64,000 bases of DNA from a virus (Duplodnaviria; Caudoviricetes), in the IMG/VR virus record IMGVR_UViG_3300028833_000109, positions 1-64,000 of that record; one strand, 5' to 3'. Both the position numbers and the translations under genes were made by a program. The notes under the pieces were generated by a model that was given only the letters and a program-made list of their open reading frames with translations, searched no databases and was not told the origin of the DNA. This document shows positions 4,191 through 16,646 of the stretch, in pieces. Position 1 is the first letter of the stretch, and the number at the start of each line of letters is the position of its first letter.

Positions 4191-5369
4191 TTATTTATTG
4201 ATGAACTCGGCAAAAGCGGCTATGACTGTCTTGTCGAGTATCTTTGCGTATGCTTTCTCGGTGGTCTTCACTGACGTGTGTCCCAGGCACTTTGCGACAA
4301 CCTCTATCGGTATGCCGCCGTTGAGCCAAATATACCCTGCCGTCCTGCGACCGACATGGGATGTCAGTTCGGTTTCAACACCTGCCGCATCAGCGACAAT
4401 CTTCAGTTTGATGTTGTACTTCTGGTTTGATATGGTGGGCAACTGGTAGTTGTACCGCTCAAGTATCTCAACCGCTTCGGGAACGAGCACGAAAGTGAAC
4501 TCGACCCCTGTCTTCTTTCTTGCGGCCGTATAGACCTTGTGTTGCCCGCTGAACTGCACATTTGAGAAGTCGAACTCAATGAGGTCGGAGTAGGAGAGGC
4601 CGGTCAAGCACTGGAACACGAACAAATCCCTCGCTTCGGCAACCGCTCCAGTCGGCATCTTCGCCGTCTTGATCCTATTGAACTCGTCATCGTCAAGGTA
4701 CTTGTCTATCCTCGTTTCGCCCTTGTCTATCCTTATGCGCCTTGAGAGGTACGGATTTTCTTTGAGGTATCCGTCAACGACCGCATCGTTTATGAATATC
4801 TTCATGCGCTTATGTATGCCGCCGATGGTGGACTGTGTGTACTTGTGTTCCGTCCATCTCCCGTAGCGGTCACGTTTCTTCCACGAGAAAGCGTGGAGCC
4901 ATTCGTCAAAGTCGCGTATGCTTTTCTCGCTGATGTCGGAGAACGACACTATCTTCCCATATTTGGTGAGTATGCCGATAAATGCCTTGTAGTGCTTTTT
5001 TGTGTCTTTAGACACATTGCGCTTCTCTCCGCGCTCGGCAATGTATCGGATAAACGACACCGTTGCTGACGGCCTGCGGACGAGGTTAGGGATGGCGCAC
5101 AAGTCAACCATTCCATTGTCAACCATATCGGCGATGGCTTTCATGGCCTTCTTCTTCATCTCAAGCAGCACCTGGTTGCAGCGCACCGCGTCGGTTGAGT
5201 TGACAACGCACTCCCTTGTCTGCGACCACTGCGAGGGGAAACACCTGATGCCGGTGGTCATGTACTTTCTTTTCCGCAGGTATGTGATGCGCATCTCAAC
5301 AATGCCTTTCTTTGTCTTTGTCGCCGTCTTCTTGCGGTCGAAGACGAACTGGATGGTGGGTATCTTCAT
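4191..5369 (-). CDS. int: Tyrosine integrase (Bacteroidota type, arm-binding + SAM-like + catalytic domains)
   Basis: FQCLTGLSYSD, RKKT, SHVGRRT, LGHTSVKTTEKAY catalytic motifs; likely start MKIPTIQF at 5369. Confidence 0.9.
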   Translation of the reverse strand: MKIPTIQFVFDRKKTATKTKKGIVEMRITYLRKRKYMTTGIRCFPSQWSQTRECVVNSTDAVRCNQVLLEMKKKAMKAIADMVDNGMVDLCAIPNLVRRPSATVSFIRYIAERGEKRNVSKDTKKHYKAFIGILTKYGKIVSFSDISEKSIRDFDEWLHAFSWKKRDRYGRWTEHKYTQSTIGGIHKRMKIFINDAVVDGYLKENPYLSRRIRIDKGETRIDKYLDDDEFNRIKTAKMPTGAVAEARDLFVFQCLTGLSYSDLIEFDFSNVQFSGQHKVYTAARKKTGVEFTFVLVPEAVEILERYNYQLPTISNQKYNIKLKIVADAAGVETELTSHVGRRTAGYIWLNGGIPIEVVAKCLGHTSVKTTEKAYAKILDKTVIAAFAEFINK

Positions 5370-5425
5370 ATCATGTTTTGTTAATGGGGTCATGGGTTCT
5401 GACCCAGGGTGGATTTGAACTTTTT

Positions 5426-5725
5426 GTGTTACCGCTGAGAGTAACACGGTAAATTTTCAGGTAACACCATACACAAAAATACCAACAAAAGTAAACAAAA
5501 ATCAACAAAAGGAATAATATATGATGGATTCTTTTTGAGGTTACTTGTTATTGCTTTGGCTGTCAGCGGGATAGATGCCGATGTTTTATAAGAAAAAGGT
5601 GTCTTTTTGCGGACACCTTTACCAAAATATACCACTAAAAAGTGATCCTGTTGGGATTTGGTGCAGGTGTTGATAGTCAATGGGTTAGGTGTCGTTTTCA
5701 GCAATCGGTAACACGGAAGTAACAC
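5426..5725. other. Candidate attP: GTAACAC arm-type repeats flanking a tRNA-3'-end-like core
   Basis: GTAACAC at 5441, 5461, 5708, 5719, inverted at 5426; core GTGATCCTGTTGGGATT (5642-5658) is the reverse complement of a tRNA T-stem/acceptor end. Confidence 0.55.
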
Positions 5726-8246: not shown

Positions 8247-8448
8247 TAAGCATAATGGTTTACTATTTTGGAATAAATATTGGTTAAACAGTTTTTGCCC
8301 CGCTCCCCTGTGAAGGCATAGCGGGCAGTCACACGCGACCCGCGTAGGGTAAGACTAATTTTCTCATAATTCATATTTTTTTGGATGTAAAAACGTGTTT
8401 ATTCCCCGCCTGCTCGTGAGGGTCGGCGGGTTTTTAATTTTGACAAAT

Positions 8449-10254
8449 ATGAAATACGATAAAAGTAATCCGCTGAGAGTTTTTGAGGCCTTTGGTGGCT
8501 ATGGTTCGCAATCGCTTGCCTTGCAACGTCTCAAAAACGACTATCCGCAGTTCGATTTTAAGGTCGTCGGATATTCCGATATTGAACCAGCAGCAATCAA
8601 GGCATACATGGCTTTACACGAAGGAGAGGGTGTTAAAAATTACGGAGACATTTGCGAAATAGACTGGTCGCAAACGCCTGATTTTGACTTGTTCACCTAC
8701 TCATTTCCATGTTTTTGTGCCGACACACTCGTTTTAACAAGTACTGGATATAAGAAGATTCAGGATGTTGAAATTGGGGATGAGGTTATGACTCACCAAA
8801 ACAGGTATCGCGCAGTGACCACAACGATGCAACGCGACTATAGCGGAATCATGGTTCGGTTGCGGGGTATGGGTATGGATGAAATATACTGCACCGCAGA
8901 ACATCCGTTTTACATAAGAAGGCGGTATCGAAAAGGTCACAAACAAGTGCGTTGTTTCACGACTCCAGAATGGGTTAAGGCAAAAGACATCAACAAGAAT
9001 TGCTTCCTTGGATATGCGATAAACACAAAATCCGAACTCCCAAAATGGGGCGGCTCTATTGACAACCGATGGGGTCACGGACGAAATGTCAACCACCTTG
9101 ATTGTCTTTTTAAAAACAGGTGGTTCTGGTATGTCATGGGAAGATATGTAGGCGACGGATGGAAAGTCGCAAGCAAGACAGGTAATCGCATCGTTATCTG
9201 CTGTAGTGAGCGCAATAAATCCTCCTTGGAAAACGCTCTTCAAGAGTGTGGTTTTCATTTTGTGACAAGTGAGGAAAGAACGGTTACGAAAATCCATATC
9301 TGCATGAACGAGTTGTATGACTTTGTTGAGCGATATGGATATACCGCAAAAGGGAAACATATTGATGCTGAAACACTAAACTTGCCAGTTGATTTGCTTG
9401 GTGGTTTTCTTGATGGTTATGTTGATAGCGATGGTTGCAATATAGATAAGTATTACAAAGTAACATCGATCAGCAGAGGATTATGTTACGGCATCGCACA
9501 ATGCGTTGCGAAGGTACACCATCGTCCATTTGCCCTGTATCACACACCAAGAAGACCGAAAACCACCATAGAGGGTCGAGAGGTAAACCAGCACGATTCT
9601 TATGAGGTGGTATGGAAATTGTCAAACGACAAGCAGGACAAGGCTTTTTATGAAGATGGATATATTTGGTACCCACTAAACAAAGAACCAGAACTCATTG
9701 AAGATAATCTTCCAGTATTTAACTTGTCGGTCGATGAGGACGAGAGTTACACAGCAAACGGAGCAATAGCGCATAATTGCCAAGACATCAGCAATGCTGG
9801 TGTCCAGCGAGGTTTTGAGAAAGGTTCAAACACAAGATCATCCTTGCTTTGGGAGTGTGAAAGAGCCATTGAGTACAAGCGCCCGAAATATCTCCTAATG
9901 GAGAATGTCAAGGCTTTAACCCAAAAGAAATTCATGCCCGATTTTAATAAATGGCTGCAACTGTTAGAATCTTACGGCTATGTGAACTCTTGGTCAGTGC
10001 TCAACTCAAAGAATTTCGGAGTTCCGCAGAACAGAGAGAGAGTATTCTGCGTGTCTATCCGTGATGATGGAGATAATCCGAAATATCATTTTCCAAACCC
10101 ATTCCCACTTGAAATCTGCCTTGCTGACATATTAGAGGAAGAGGTTGACGAAAAGTATTTCCTTCGTGATGAAATGCTTGCAAGGTTTTGTGAGAAATCT
10201 CAAGACAATGATCCAGAGCAAAAAGAAATCGACTTTGAGGAGTGGCTCGTGTAG
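8449..10254 (+). CDS. C5-cytosine DNA methyltransferase, N-terminal part (motifs I-VIII), intein-containing
   Basis: FEAFGGYG (I), GDI, SFP|CQD (IV), ENV (VI), QNRER (VIII); motifs IX-X absent. Confidence 0.9.
   Translation: MKYDKSNPLRVFEAFGGYGSQSLALQRLKNDYPQFDFKVVGYSDIEPAAIKAYMALHEGEGVKNYGDICEIDWSQTPDFDLFTYSFPCFCADTLVLTSTGYKKIQDVEIGDEVMTHQNRYRAVTTTMQRDYSGIMVRLRGMGMDEIYCTAEHPFYIRRRYRKGHKQVRCFTTPEWVKAKDINKNCFLGYAINTKSELPKWGGSIDNRWGHGRNVNHLDCLFKNRWFWYVMGRYVGDGWKVASKTGNRIVICCSERNKSSLENALQECGFHFVTSEERTVTKIHICMNELYDFVERYGYTAKGKHIDAETLNLPVDLLGGFLDGYVDSDGCNIDKYYKVTSISRGLCYGIAQCVAKVHHRPFALYHTPRRPKTTIEGREVNQHDSYEVVWKLSNDKQDKAFYEDGYIWYPLNKEPELIEDNLPVFNLSVDEDESYTANGAIAHNCQDISNAGVQRGFEKGSNTRSSLLWECERAIEYKRPKYLLMENVKALTQKKFMPDFNKWLQLLESYGYVNSWSVLNSKNFGVPQNRERVFCVSIRDDGDNPKYHFPNPFPLEICLADILEEEVDEKYFLRDEMLARFCEKSQDNDPEQKEIDFEEWLV
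8710..9777 (+). mobile_element. Intein with LAGLIDADG homing endonuclease in the MTase PC motif
   Basis: CFCADT start, TAEHPF block B, GRYVGDG and GFLDGYVDSDG, AHN end followed by the catalytic Cys; 356 aa. Confidence 0.9.
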
Positions 10255-12178: not shown

Positions 12179-12187
12179 ACTGACATT

Positions 12188-13955: not shown

Positions 13956-14408
13956 ATGAATAAGATGATGAGTGAAACGCAATTAGACCGATTAGTAAGA
14001 AATGGTTGTTACGAAACCACGAGCCTTGATTGTGTGGGTTATTGCAGGGTTTCAACCAAAAAACAAAATTATGACTTACAAATTGCCGCAATAAAAAAGT
14101 TCTGCGATGAGCATGGATTGAATATCGTGCGATGGTACACGGAAACAATTAGTGGCGCGGCACCCTTTGAAAATCGTACTGCAATACTGGATGCTGCAAA
14201 GTATTGCCAAGAAAACGGGTTTGCACTTGTGGCGTATTCCTATGACCGTGTTTCAAGGAGCAACGATTTTACCTACAAATTTTTTAAGAGTTTTGAGATT
14301 GACACAATTATTGTATCAAACCCACAAATCAAAAAAGAAATCTATACTCTCGCTGATTACTGGAGTGGGCTTTATCTGCGACAAGGAACAAGTCAAGTGA
14401 TGGATTAA
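13956..14408 (+). CDS. Serine recombinase/resolvase (catalytic domain only)
   Basis: GYCRVST..Q, ETISG, DRVSR. Confidence 0.85.
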   Translation: MNKMMSETQLDRLVRNGCYETTSLDCVGYCRVSTKKQNYDLQIAAIKKFCDEHGLNIVRWYTETISGAAPFENRTAILDAAKYCQENGFALVAYSYDRVSRSNDFTYKFFKSFEIDTIIVSNPQIKKEIYTLADYWSGLYLRQGTSQVMD

Positions 14409-14443: not shown

Positions 14444-14671
14444 ATGGAGCGATTTGAATTAGACACAAAGATTAAAGGAGTTAATGCCATGCAGTACATG
14501 GCAGACCTTATTGAAAAAAACGAGGCATTGCAGATTGACATCGAGCGCAGCAAGCAAATCAATTCGGTATTGAAGCAGATGAACAATCGCAGCAGATTGT
14601 TGCTTGATGCTGCAAAGTTTGAGTTAAAGGAGAAAGAGTTCGCCATGAAACAAAATGAGGCGGCTCAGTAA
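14444..14671 (+). CDS. Hypothetical coiled-coil protein
   Basis: 75-aa ORF preceding the CRISPR module. Confidence 0.6.
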   Translation: MERFELDTKIKGVNAMQYMADLIEKNEALQIDIERSKQINSVLKQMNNRSRLLLDAAKFELKEKEFAMKQNEAAQ

Positions 14672-14682
14672 AAAAAATGATA

Positions 14683-14772
14683 TTCGGGGCGGTTGTACGT
14701 CCTTAATTCGTGGGAAATTTCCACACGAAAACAACCTTAATTTATTGTTTTTTAATGGTTTATTCGGAATCG
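14683..14772 (+). ncRNA. Putative tracrRNA/scaffold for array 1
   Basis: GGTTGTAC, hairpin 14707-14729, CAACCTT and GTTTTTTAATG complementary to repeat 1. Confidence 0.65.
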
Positions 14773-15113
14773 GTTGTAATTACATTAAAAACCGAAGGTT
14801 GATACAACTGTAATCATCGCGCCGTAGTTTTTAAAGAGTTGTAATTACATTAAAAACCGAAGGTTGATACAACTACTATGGTGACATTACAGTGACAATG
14901 GTCGTTGTAATTACATTAAAAACCGAAGGTTGATACAACCCTGGCCGTTATTCGTGTGTGTGTCGTCAGTTGTAATTACCTTAAAAACCGAAGGTTGATA
15001 CAACGCTGCTTTGTCTCTCTCGGCCTGCTGTTGCGTTGTAATTACATTAAAAACCAAAGGTTGATGCAACAAGGCCATCTTGCTAAAAGTTGTGATTACA
15101 TTAAAAACCGAAG
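14773..15113 (+). CRISPR. CRISPR mini-array 1: 5 full + 1 degenerate 36-nt repeats, 5 spacers
   Basis: GTTGTAATTACATTAAAAACCGAAGGTTGATACAAC at 14773, 14838, 14904, 14969, 15035, partial 15089; spacers 29, 30, 29, 30, 18 nt. Confidence 0.95.
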
Positions 15114-15119
15114 TAACAA

Positions 15120-16253
15120 ATGATTATTACGAGAAAAATCGAGGTCTTTGTATGCGAAGACGATAAAGACCTGCGTAGGGCATACTACGAAAAACTTTAT
15201 GCCAATAGGGATATAGCAGTAAAGGCCGCAAATATGGCAATGAGTCACTTGTTCGCTCTCGACAACACGATGCCATACTTGAGCGACACCGACAAGGAAA
15301 AGATTGAGTTCCTTGGAGTGAAAGGCCAAAAAGCGACAAAACAAAACGCACCTTACGTTGCCGCAAGCGAGGCATTCAAAGGCCAAGCAGACATGGGAAT
15401 GATAAGCTGTGTCTTGCAGAATGCGCAAAAGATGTATCAAGAAGACAAGAAGAAAGGAATGTGGAACAAATCATTGCGATCGTACAAAAGCAATATGCCA
15501 GTGCCATATAAAAGAGAACGATTCCTTAATCTTCGTTTTGATGACTACATCAATGGAAACGGCGAAAAGCGAAACGGATGCTTTTTCACGTTGATAGGCG
15601 TGCCTTTTCAAATGCGATTTGGGAGGGACAGGAGCGGCAATAGGCTGATTGTTGAGCGAGTGGTTAGCGGAGAATACAAGATGTGTACTTCGTCACTGCA
15701 ATTCGATGGAAAGAAAATCTTTTTGCTCCTTTGTGTCGACATCCCGCAAAAAAACATCGAGTTGGATGCGAAAAAGACGCTTTATGCTTTTCTTGGTGTA
15801 ATGAATCCGATTATATGCACATGCGACGTAAAAGCGGCAAAAGAATATGATAGCGGAATGAAATCGTTTGAAATCGGCACAAAGGAAGAGTTCAACTACA
15901 GGAGAAGACAAATCCAAGAAGCCGTAAGGCGATGCCAAATCAACAATACTTACTCAACAGGAGGCAAGGGTCGCAAAAAGAAAACCAAGGCGATAGAACG
16001 CTATCACGACAAGGAGAGGAACTACGTTGACACAAAGTTGCACACTTATAGCAGGATGCTTGTTGATATTGCAATAAAGCACAAGTGTGCCAATATCGTG
16101 TTAATGAATCAGACACATAGAGAAAACTATGCGAAGGAAGATAACAAAAACGGCGAGCCGTTTGTTCTGCGTAATTGGTCTTACTATGGTCTTAAAGAAA
16201 AGATTGAGTACAAGTGCAAGATTGCAGGAATCAAGTTGAAAGAAGAAAAATAA
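15120..16253 (+). CDS. cas12f: Nuclease-dead TnpB/Cas12f-like RNA-guided DNA-binding protein
   Basis: TRKI N-terminus, SLRSYK..MP, GGKGRKKK bridge, LH.YSR.LVD.A, RNWSYY.L..KIEYK...AGI; RuvC-I D is F (YAFLG), RuvC-II E is M (IVLMNQ), Zn finger/RuvC-III missing. Confidence 0.8.
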   Translation: MIITRKIEVFVCEDDKDLRRAYYEKLYANRDIAVKAANMAMSHLFALDNTMPYLSDTDKEKIEFLGVKGQKATKQNAPYVAASEAFKGQADMGMISCVLQNAQKMYQEDKKKGMWNKSLRSYKSNMPVPYKRERFLNLRFDDYINGNGEKRNGCFFTLIGVPFQMRFGRDRSGNRLIVERVVSGEYKMCTSSLQFDGKKIFLLLCVDIPQKNIELDAKKTLYAFLGVMNPIICTCDVKAAKEYDSGMKSFEIGTKEEFNYRRRQIQEAVRRCQINNTYSTGGKGRKKKTKAIERYHDKERNYVDTKLHTYSRMLVDIAIKHKCANIVLMNQTHRENYAKEDNKNGEPFVLRNWSYYGLKEKIEYKCKIAGIKLKEEK

Positions 16254-16260
16254 AAAGAAT

Positions 16261-16348
16261 ATCGGGTTGGTTGTACAGCCTTATGTTGAGATTTTTTACT
16301 CGACAAGTTACCTTAATATATTAACAATAAGGAGATTTGTGCGCTTAG
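16261..16348 (+). ncRNA. Putative tracrRNA/scaffold for array 2
   Basis: GGTTGTAC, hairpin 16284-16305, GTTACCT and AACAATAAGGAGATTT complementary to repeat 2. Confidence 0.65.
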
Positions 16349-16646
16349 GTTGTAAATCACTTTATTGTTTAGGTGACATACAACTCAAGCTGCTGGATAT
16401 ATTCCTCAACATTAAGTTGTAAATCACTTTATTGTTTAGGTGACATACAACTGATACCAGGTCTTGTGTTGCTGCTTTGTGTTGTGAATCACTTTATTAT
16501 TTAGGCAACATACAACGTGTATGCCATAATGTTTATTCTGTAATTGTTGTGAATCACTTTATTATTTAGGTAACATACAACATTATGGCAACAATAGTAA
16601 TTGAACGAGAGTTGTAAATCACTTTATTATTTAGGTAGCATATAAT
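16349..16646 (+). CRISPR. CRISPR mini-array 2: 4 full + 1 degenerate 36-nt repeats, 4 spacers
   Basis: GTTGTAAATCACTTTATTGTTTAGGTGACATACAAC (variants) at 16349, 16416, 16481, 16546, 16611; spacers 31, 29, 29, 29 nt. Confidence 0.95.

Follow-up and report, generated by a model that had tools for sequence, protein, structure and literature searches.

A phage-borne nuclease-dead Cas12f with two scaffold-fused CRISPR arrays and spacers matching tRNA-integrated elements in Bacteroidales

The phage locus and its proteins

The DNA stretch analysed here, 64,000 nucleotides long and called the window below, is the first part of a 96-kb virus record (IMG/VR IMGVR_UViG_3300028833_000109; 91% complete). 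An integrase gene at 4191–5447 suggests that the phage is probably temperate; its host group is probably Bacteroidales, and related phages were found in MAGs of Prevotella and Prevotellaceae. A 377-aa open reading frame (15120–16253, + strand) lies between two CRISPR arrays of 36-nt repeats, both also on the + strand. Array 1 (14773–15124) comprises five repeats plus a degenerate terminal repeat, with spacers of 29, 30, 29, 30 and 18 nt, and array 2 (16349–16646) comprises four repeats plus a degenerate terminal repeat, with spacers of 31, 29, 29 and 29 nt. The degenerate last repeat of array 1 (15089–15124) overlaps the start codon of the 377-aa gene, a similar abutment being seen in several relatives. 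Directly ahead of the arrays lie two scaffolds on the same strand (scaffold 1, 14684–14772; scaffold 2, 16262–16348), and a gene for a 75-aa helical protein (14444–14671, +) precedes scaffold 1.

The best solved relative of the 377-aa protein is the nuclease-dead Fta Cas12f (PDB 9n9c), matched over the full length (E 5e-59), and the next structural relatives are active Cas12f proteins. The RuvC-I Asp is replaced by Phe, a position occupied by F or Y in 118 of the 118 homologues in which the motif was read. Moreover, the RuvC-II Glu and RuvC-III are missing and the chain stops before the zinc finger, leaving the protein without the RuvC D-E-D residues and the TNB/zinc finger of type V-F nucleases. 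This homology and the residue losses identify the 377-aa product as a nuclease-dead Cas12f (dCas12f). A large protein search returned 1109 dCas12f homologues, and the GenBank phage collection yielded distant Cas12f/TnpB relatives only. The protein tree was made with a quick method and has long branches, and the order of events is not read from it.

The phage genome carries one dCas12f with adjoining arrays; the 96-kb record holds only the two scaffolds described, and relatives of the phage have up to five near dcas12f. The 91%-complete phage genome gave no match to cas1, cas2 or a sigma factor, and PF04542 and PF08281, used as the rpoE test, were likewise unmatched in it. Upstream of the scaffolds, no sigma70-type promoter scored above chance and no TAnnTTTG motif was found; between scaffold and repeat, no terminator-like site was seen on the + strand. 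The 75-aa protein has a homologue at 34 of 46 close-clade loci (duplicates included), either upstream or downstream of dcas12f, and its Atlas look-alikes are phage proteins without names. It weakly matches (E 3e-5) the 78-aa phrog_2044, whose label, RNA polymerase beta subunit, is doubtful. Its linkage makes it a candidate accessory subunit of dCas12f.

Ahead of the system, and close to it, lies a gene for a serine recombinase of the resolvase type (150 aa, 13956–14408), bracketed by a 23-nt direct repeat (13930 and 14418). This gene, in the segment 13930–14440, is missing in a 99%-identical sister phage (L001) and looks recently inserted. Elsewhere in the window, a DNA methyltransferase-like open reading frame (8395–10254) contains an apparent intein with a homing endonuclease, as indicated by C...AHN/C junctions in its translation.

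A scaffold that folds with the first repeat

A preliminary description of this DNA had proposed that the regions ahead of the two arrays share one architecture, and this architecture is real, with every motif it named in place. The sequence GGTTGTAC occurs at 14691 and 16269, 82 and 80 nt ahead of the repeats starting at 14773 and 16349, and the 15-nt pattern GGTTGTAC-NN-CCTTA occurs only twice in the 96-kb genome, both times at the scaffolds. Folding, family alignment and a covariance model (R1) show each scaffold and its first repeat as a single fold composed of two hairpins (P1 and P2), a pseudoknot and P3, an anti-repeat helix of 7 bp, with the first repeat of array 1 completing the single-guide fold of scaffold 1. 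There, P1 spans 14686–14703, its loop GTTGTA (14692–14697) being the 5' strand of the pseudoknot; P2 spans 14707–14729 (arms starting at 14707 and 14724), the P3 anti-repeat arm 14732–14738, and a variable extended anti-repeat 14747–14757. The corresponding elements of scaffold 2 are P1 at 16264–16281 (loop GTTGTA, 16270–16275), P2 at 16284–16305 (arms starting at 16284 and 16299), the P3 arm at 16307–16313 and the extended anti-repeat at 16323–16338. Scaffold plus first repeat folds more stably than shuffled sequences on the + strand (z −3.1 for unit 1 and −5.0 for unit 2) and less so on the − strand (z about −2). Model R1 scores the two units at 103.6 bits (14684–14808) and 93.8 bits (16262–16384), both being members of its training set, and an Rfam search gave no meaningful match.

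The earlier suggestion that GTTGTA can pair with the repeat end TACAAC is borne out, although hairpin P1 had been overlooked. The GGTTGTAC motif is the loop plus the 3' arm of this 6-bp hairpin; since GTTGTA is thus the P1 loop, and the nested fold leaves TACAAC free, the two form a pseudoknot when they pair. The P1 arms of the two units differ through compensatory changes, and the hairpin of unit-specific sequence that had been noticed after the motif corresponds to P2.

The same fold recurs among related phages. A family set of 48 loci yielded about 50 distinct scaffold units, nearly all of which run directly into a repeat. In an alignment of 42 units, 95.8% of the cells that belong to the four helices (P1, pseudoknot, P2, P3) hold a pair, as against 79.8% for shuffled and 34–46% for slid alignments. 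The compensatory changes that had been postulated are two-sided in 21 of 28 pairs and cover all 8 pairs of P3, and RNAalifold recovers P1, P2 and P3 without prior input. In the pseudoknot, C-G is replaced by U-A in 6 of the 42 units, both window units included: most relatives combine the loop GCTGTA with the repeat end TACAGC, and the window combines GTTGTA with TACAAC. Outside this core, the columns of the extended (distal) anti-repeat are not conserved and its register is not fixed across the family. Naturally shorter scaffolds of about 90, 80 and 70 nt also occur; their P3 arm either lies directly against the repeat or is separated from it by just a small loop.

Model R1, the covariance model from homologs that had been called for, was built from phage units and also matches dCas12f guide RNAs elsewhere, namely 68–70-nt RNAs directly 3' of dcas12f (E 7e-8 to 1e-4; L127–L129, L131; three further Bacteroidota genomes). 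At L127, the one tested, the gene upstream of dcas12f is a sigma factor. In the dCas12f-sigmaE guide RNA, four paired regions are followed by the guide at the 3' end (PMC13472631; bioRxiv 10.1101/2025.06.10.658880). Because R1 matches at these loci, the scaffold plus first repeat is, on comparative evidence, homologous to the dCas12f-sigmaE single guide RNA, which fixes the orientation: the guide follows TACAAC. Covariation, together with homology to the compact guide RNAs of rpoE-dcas12f loci, supports the preliminary description both in calling the element tracr-like and in predicting a natural single-guide RNA.

This homology bears on whether the arrays might instead serve a host effector, such as Cas9 or the RNA-targeting Cas13b, with the upstream element being merely a leader. 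The 36-nt GTTG...CAAC repeats and 29–31-nt spacers do resemble Bacteroidota II-C/VI-B arrays, and VI-B arrays show both an antisense bias and an upstream motif. However, repeat sequences differ widely among family members, and they change together with the scaffold, at ends such as TACAGC too; moreover, the scaffold shares its ancestry with the guide RNAs of dCas12f and is always near dcas12f in the loci examined, making a host effector a very improbable user of these arrays.

Two relatives illustrate further arrangements of the scaffold. At L043 (3359–5960), six scaffold-model matches surround one dcas12f, and the arrays have repeats trimmed to the 3' ~14 nt. On a Muribaculaceae chromosome (L047:3834–3902), a compact 69-nt guide scaffold sits upstream of a 42%-identical dCas12f and downstream of a susD-like gene.

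Cognate pairing within the two cassettes

Repeats 1 and 2 are identical at 20 of 36 positions, and the preliminary description had assigned to each scaffold a split anti-repeat matching only its own array. The anti-repeat segments start at 14732 and 14747 in unit 1 and at 16307 and 16323 in unit 2. In the window, cognate anti-repeat/repeat duplexes (−14.3 and −21.5 kcal/mol) beat shuffles (p 0.048 and 0.001), whereas non-cognate duplexes (−7.3 and −5.0 kcal/mol) do not (p 0.42 and 0.90); this preference was measured by duplex tests, as chimera folds are confounded by self-folding repeats. The two halves fare differently, the distal half being strong in unit 2 (p 0.005) and weak in unit 1 (p 0.13). 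Across the family this distal half is only weakly cognate-specific.

It had further been proposed that the units are two orthogonal tracr:repeat pairs with compensatory changes. The changes are borne out, orthogonality in the window is so in thermodynamic terms only, and functional orthogonality selected as such, for separate guide pools or effectors, would draw on cognate duplexes that are 7–16 kcal/mol more stable than non-cognate ones and on a like preference in some relatives (L001, L018, L032 and L035). Orthogonality as a functional design is not supported, however: no more than 9 of 46 units pair best with their cognate repeat, and scaffolds of one locus cross-pair equally or better, or are identical, at L003, L004, L007, L026, L027 and L036. 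The pseudoknot segment is the same in both window units, a single effector is present and both arrays are aimed at the same genes, so that selected orthogonality appears improbable. Given the single effector, common pseudoknot and common targets, it is simpler to suppose that two co-transcribed cassettes have drifted independently, which is also the best reading of the cognate preference; the two scaffolds would differ since each co-evolves with its own array, and not through different effectors. Between scaffold 2 and its counterpart in the sister phage, the P3 arms (16307–16313 and L001:4190–4200) differ by one base, and each version pairs perfectly with a different repeat variant still in the array, a picture of co-evolution in progress.

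Beyond the first repeat, changes at P3 positions of internal repeats still allow pairing with the scaffold arm in 22 of 33 cases (9.7 expected), and internal repeats hold the pseudoknot ends better than the middles. At L043, the part to which repeats have shrunk (~14 nt) is the one that pairs with the scaffold. As internal-repeat changes tend to keep this pairing, the scaffold probably acts as both single guide and tracrRNA; its anti-repeat complementarity to the repeat, visible in P3 and pseudoknot covariation and in internal repeats, is a feature of type V-F tracrRNAs. Alternatively, only the scaffold-proximal spacer could be a live guide, with downstream spacers forming an archive displaced by new acquisitions. 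Repeat 1 alone is covalently contiguous with the scaffold, each transcript has one scaffold, the conserved P3 is only ~7 bp, acquisition is scaffold-proximal (see below), and part of the 22 of 33 could be historical, older repeats having paired with an earlier scaffold. Against this stand the retained pairing of changed internal repeats, the preserved pseudoknot ends and the perfect target matches of the internal spacers A1-S4 and A2-S2. We regard a mere archive as possible, if on the unlikely side, and prefer the dual role.

Spacer turnover and target elements

Spacers common to close phages are distal and unique ones scaffold-proximal (window/L001, L022/L024 and L007/L026), which places the scaffold at the leader position and makes the newest spacer the one fused to it. 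In-trans acquisition has been shown for II-C/VI-B arrays (PMC8092290), which the repeat and spacer sizes here resemble, and host MAGs contain cas1 genes of several types; the spacers are presumably acquired through host Cas1-Cas2. In one relative (L020:3575–3670), adjacent spacers are partly reverse complements, apparently from opposite strands of one site.

The window arrays were searched against 401 genomes, and one element was found that is matched by A1-S1, A2-S1 and, weakly, A1-S3, plus two sister-phage spacers; relatives of this element were added afterwards. In total, four window spacers match target elements at 0–4 mismatches and a fifth weakly, all antisense to the target gene; the two arrays have their target genes in common, within one family of elements. 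Shuffled spacers gave zero matches at ≤4 mismatches. Spacer A1-S1 (14809–14837, +) matches the start of the element's 126-aa winged-helix gene, with the first 23 nt perfect, two mismatches and the 5' flank TTCG, and A1-S3 (14940–14968, +) corresponds to the DUF3987 gene of that element with six mismatches, near chance level. A1-S4 (15005–15034, +) perfectly matches the 61-aa gene of related elements (L116, L117; 5' flank TTCG), which A2-S1 (16385–16415, +) matches in target elements with 3–4 mismatches (TTCC or TTCT). A2-S2 (16452–16480, +) perfectly matches the 63-aa homologue in a related element (L112–L114; ATCG). Additionally, two MAGs with related phages each contain a second contig matched by spacers from both phage arrays; two of these matches are perfect and have an intact flank. 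Such co-occurrence within a MAG can be a binning artefact.

No target was identified for A1-S2, A2-S3, A2-S4 and most family spacers, nor for the array of L006 among 391 genomes. The GenBank phage collection contained no spacer targets, exact 20-nt scans of IMG/VR with two spacers returned only the sister phage's arrays, and a search of IMG/VR for the proteins of the target elements found none. Among the family spacers, one has its match in a Mu-like prophage and another in a related phage. Self-targeting of the phage genome was considered and not accepted, as only short start-codon-context matches appeared (A2-S4, 15/16 at 12185). Spacer A1-S2 (14874–14903) carries spaced GTGACA motifs like the repeats beside target-element integrase genes and may be derived from an att arm.

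In the nine good matches whose 5' end is intact, the flank is TTCG, ATCG, TTCC or ATCC (one variant TTCT), giving an inferred TAM of 5'-WTCS. Matched spacers cluster in a ~420-bp stretch over the 61- and 126-aa genes.

The target elements are about 6 kb long and lie at tRNA genes (3' end) in Bacteroidales host chromosomes. They encode a tyrosine integrase and an HTH_17 excisionase-like protein and keep a trio of 212-, 61- and 126-aa genes, next to a replication gene that varies between elements (DUF3987 helicase/primase, G2P-like Rep or others). Their annotation shows neither a relaxase nor a capsid gene. With a packaging-hijack gene (terS, capsid morphogenesis or Sid) in mind, fold searches with the 212-aa protein, which has at least 165 homologues, gave generic coiled-coil matches only; the 126-aa protein is winged-helix-like. 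The tRNA 3' end, tyrosine integrase, excisionase-like HTH protein and primase/helicase or Rep form a PICI-like layout, and, going by gene content, the elements are probably phage satellites that would depend on a helper. The family, apparently undescribed, includes L080:2850–8134 (G356:C9), L058, L079 and L102–L121.

Proposed mode of action and known relatives

We consider it likely that the phage dCas12f and its two guide cassettes bind, without cutting, satellite-like elements in the host chromosome and thereby interfere with them. Each cassette joins an ~87-nt scaffold in cis to its own CRISPR array, the pair flanking the single dCas12f; both would be transcribed with the phage operon and presumably trimmed by host RNases. 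The first repeat would yield a ready-made single guide, and the scaffold could alternatively clamp an internal repeat, by looping-out in cis or in trans, so that older spacers are used. A dCas12f dimer with the scaffold-repeat-spacer RNA would then bind the target element uncut and disturb its gene expression or replication. In this way, the phage or prophage may suppress a chromosomal competitor, probably a phage satellite, while the host stays alive; because the element sits in the host chromosome, binding without cleavage would be safe for the host. The spacer matches with a conserved 5' motif provide indirect support for RNA-guided DNA binding and repression.

How binding would act depends on spacer orientation. 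Nearly all distinct matched spacers (about 12 of 13) run antisense to the gene that they target, and the odd one out is the phage-targeting spacer; these matches are clustered and not independent, and a target-independent composition test of antisense bias was not significant (53 of 94 spacers, p 0.26). TldR and dCas12 act as elongation blocks in the orientation that turns the TAM towards the incoming polymerase, which would predict sense spacers, so a simple elongation roadblock fits poorly. The antisense orientation could reflect a replication block, interference with an antisense regulator that is not annotated, biased acquisition or the guided start of antisense transcription. Under the last of these, dCas12f would recruit a host sigma factor or polymerase, possibly via the linked 75-aa protein, start transcription downstream of the TAM as Fta does, and silence the target operon. 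The closest solved relative starts 45–48 bp downstream of its TAM, so that antisense spacers would direct transcription against the operon; the roughly 12:1 antisense ratio within ~420 bp, the tight linkage of the 75-aa gene and its PHROG match point the same way. Yet the phage lacks a sigma factor, its clade lies apart from the sigmaE-linked clade in the quick tree, the PHROG label is doubtful and the strand bias is not significant family-wide, which leaves guided antisense transcription distinctly unlikely. A broader and still unlikely scenario would be an adaptive non-cutting phage CRISPR whose leader is the sgRNA scaffold and whose antisense-oriented binding silences satellites, possibly by antisense transcription with the 75-aa partner; if true, each new spacer inserted at the leader-scaffold would become a single guide at once.

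The scaffold class itself has already been noted. Hoffmann et al. (Nature 2026; PMC13472631) depict, in Extended Data Fig. 1a,b, a CRISPR-array-associated dCas12f cluster without rpoE, with a covariance-derived putative gRNA upstream of the arrays, and propose repression on computational grounds. The phage system shares with that cluster, as depicted, the nuclease-dead, C-terminally truncated Cas12f beside arrays, the covarying scaffold just upstream and the lack of rpoE. It differs from what is described there in its targets, which are coding regions of integrated mobile elements and not efflux-system promoters, and, as far as that description goes, in being phage-borne with two cassettes and spacer turnover. 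New here are the target class, the putative TAM, the acquisition polarity and the linked small protein, and no paper on phage-borne copies or satellite-like targets was found in the open-access literature. A class of dCas12f-CRISPR loci previously confined to a figure thereby gains a concrete target and a putative TAM, pointing to a conflict between phage and satellite in which the phage's effector does not cut.

With the dCas12f-sigmaE system (Fta, PDB 9n9c), the phage system shares full-length protein homology, RuvC loss and a homologous four-helix guide scaffold. In contrast, the phage has no sigmaE or HTH cassette, its P3 loops out ~55 nt including the full 36-nt repeat, and it combines variable acquired spacers and the putative TAM WTCS where dCas12f-sigmaE has a fixed 14-nt guide and the TAM G. 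The dCas12f-sigmaE gRNA is also compact (85–89 nt) and has no array, whereas the phage has ~123 nt of scaffold plus repeat followed by arrays. Bacteroidota type V-F Cas12f proteins (PDB 9nzo, 9nzr; L130, L048) are of the same family and have tracr-type scaffold-repeat pairing, and at L130 this P2 motif recurs in the stretch from cas12f to the array; these nucleases differ in their intact RuvC and TNB domain, and a separate tracrRNA is canonical for V-F, the phage scaffold being fused to repeat 1.

Cas12m is not known to need a tracrRNA. This type V-M protein suppresses mobile elements by non-cutting DNA binding (PMC10691335), and TldR occurs in prophages (10.1101/2023.11.30.569447). Both resemble the phage system in the DNA binding without cleavage proposed for it and belong to different lineages; TldR moreover has no array, and the phage spacers are oriented opposite to the TldR roadblock. 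Compared with these, an analogy in biological role comes from phage ICP1. Its CRISPR-Cas, reportedly aimed at the PLE satellite of Vibrio cholerae (Seed et al. 2013), is of type I-F, cuts its target and comes with cas1/cas2-3 of its own. Both phages would direct an adaptive CRISPR against a chromosomal parasite, the present one with a single dead class 2 protein and no adaptation genes.

Altae-Tran et al. (2023; PMC10691335) proposed a fusion of tracrRNA with a half repeat, a stage that the phage scaffold-repeat fusion resembles, and the cassette likewise resembles the proposed intermediate on the path from dual tracr/crRNA guides to compact single guides. The natural length variants (about 125, 90, 80 and 70 nt) make this dual-to-single guide route testable, and the 377-aa protein, a predicted natural DNA binder whose natural sgRNA is short, could be developed into a small CRISPRi tool for use in Bacteroidales.
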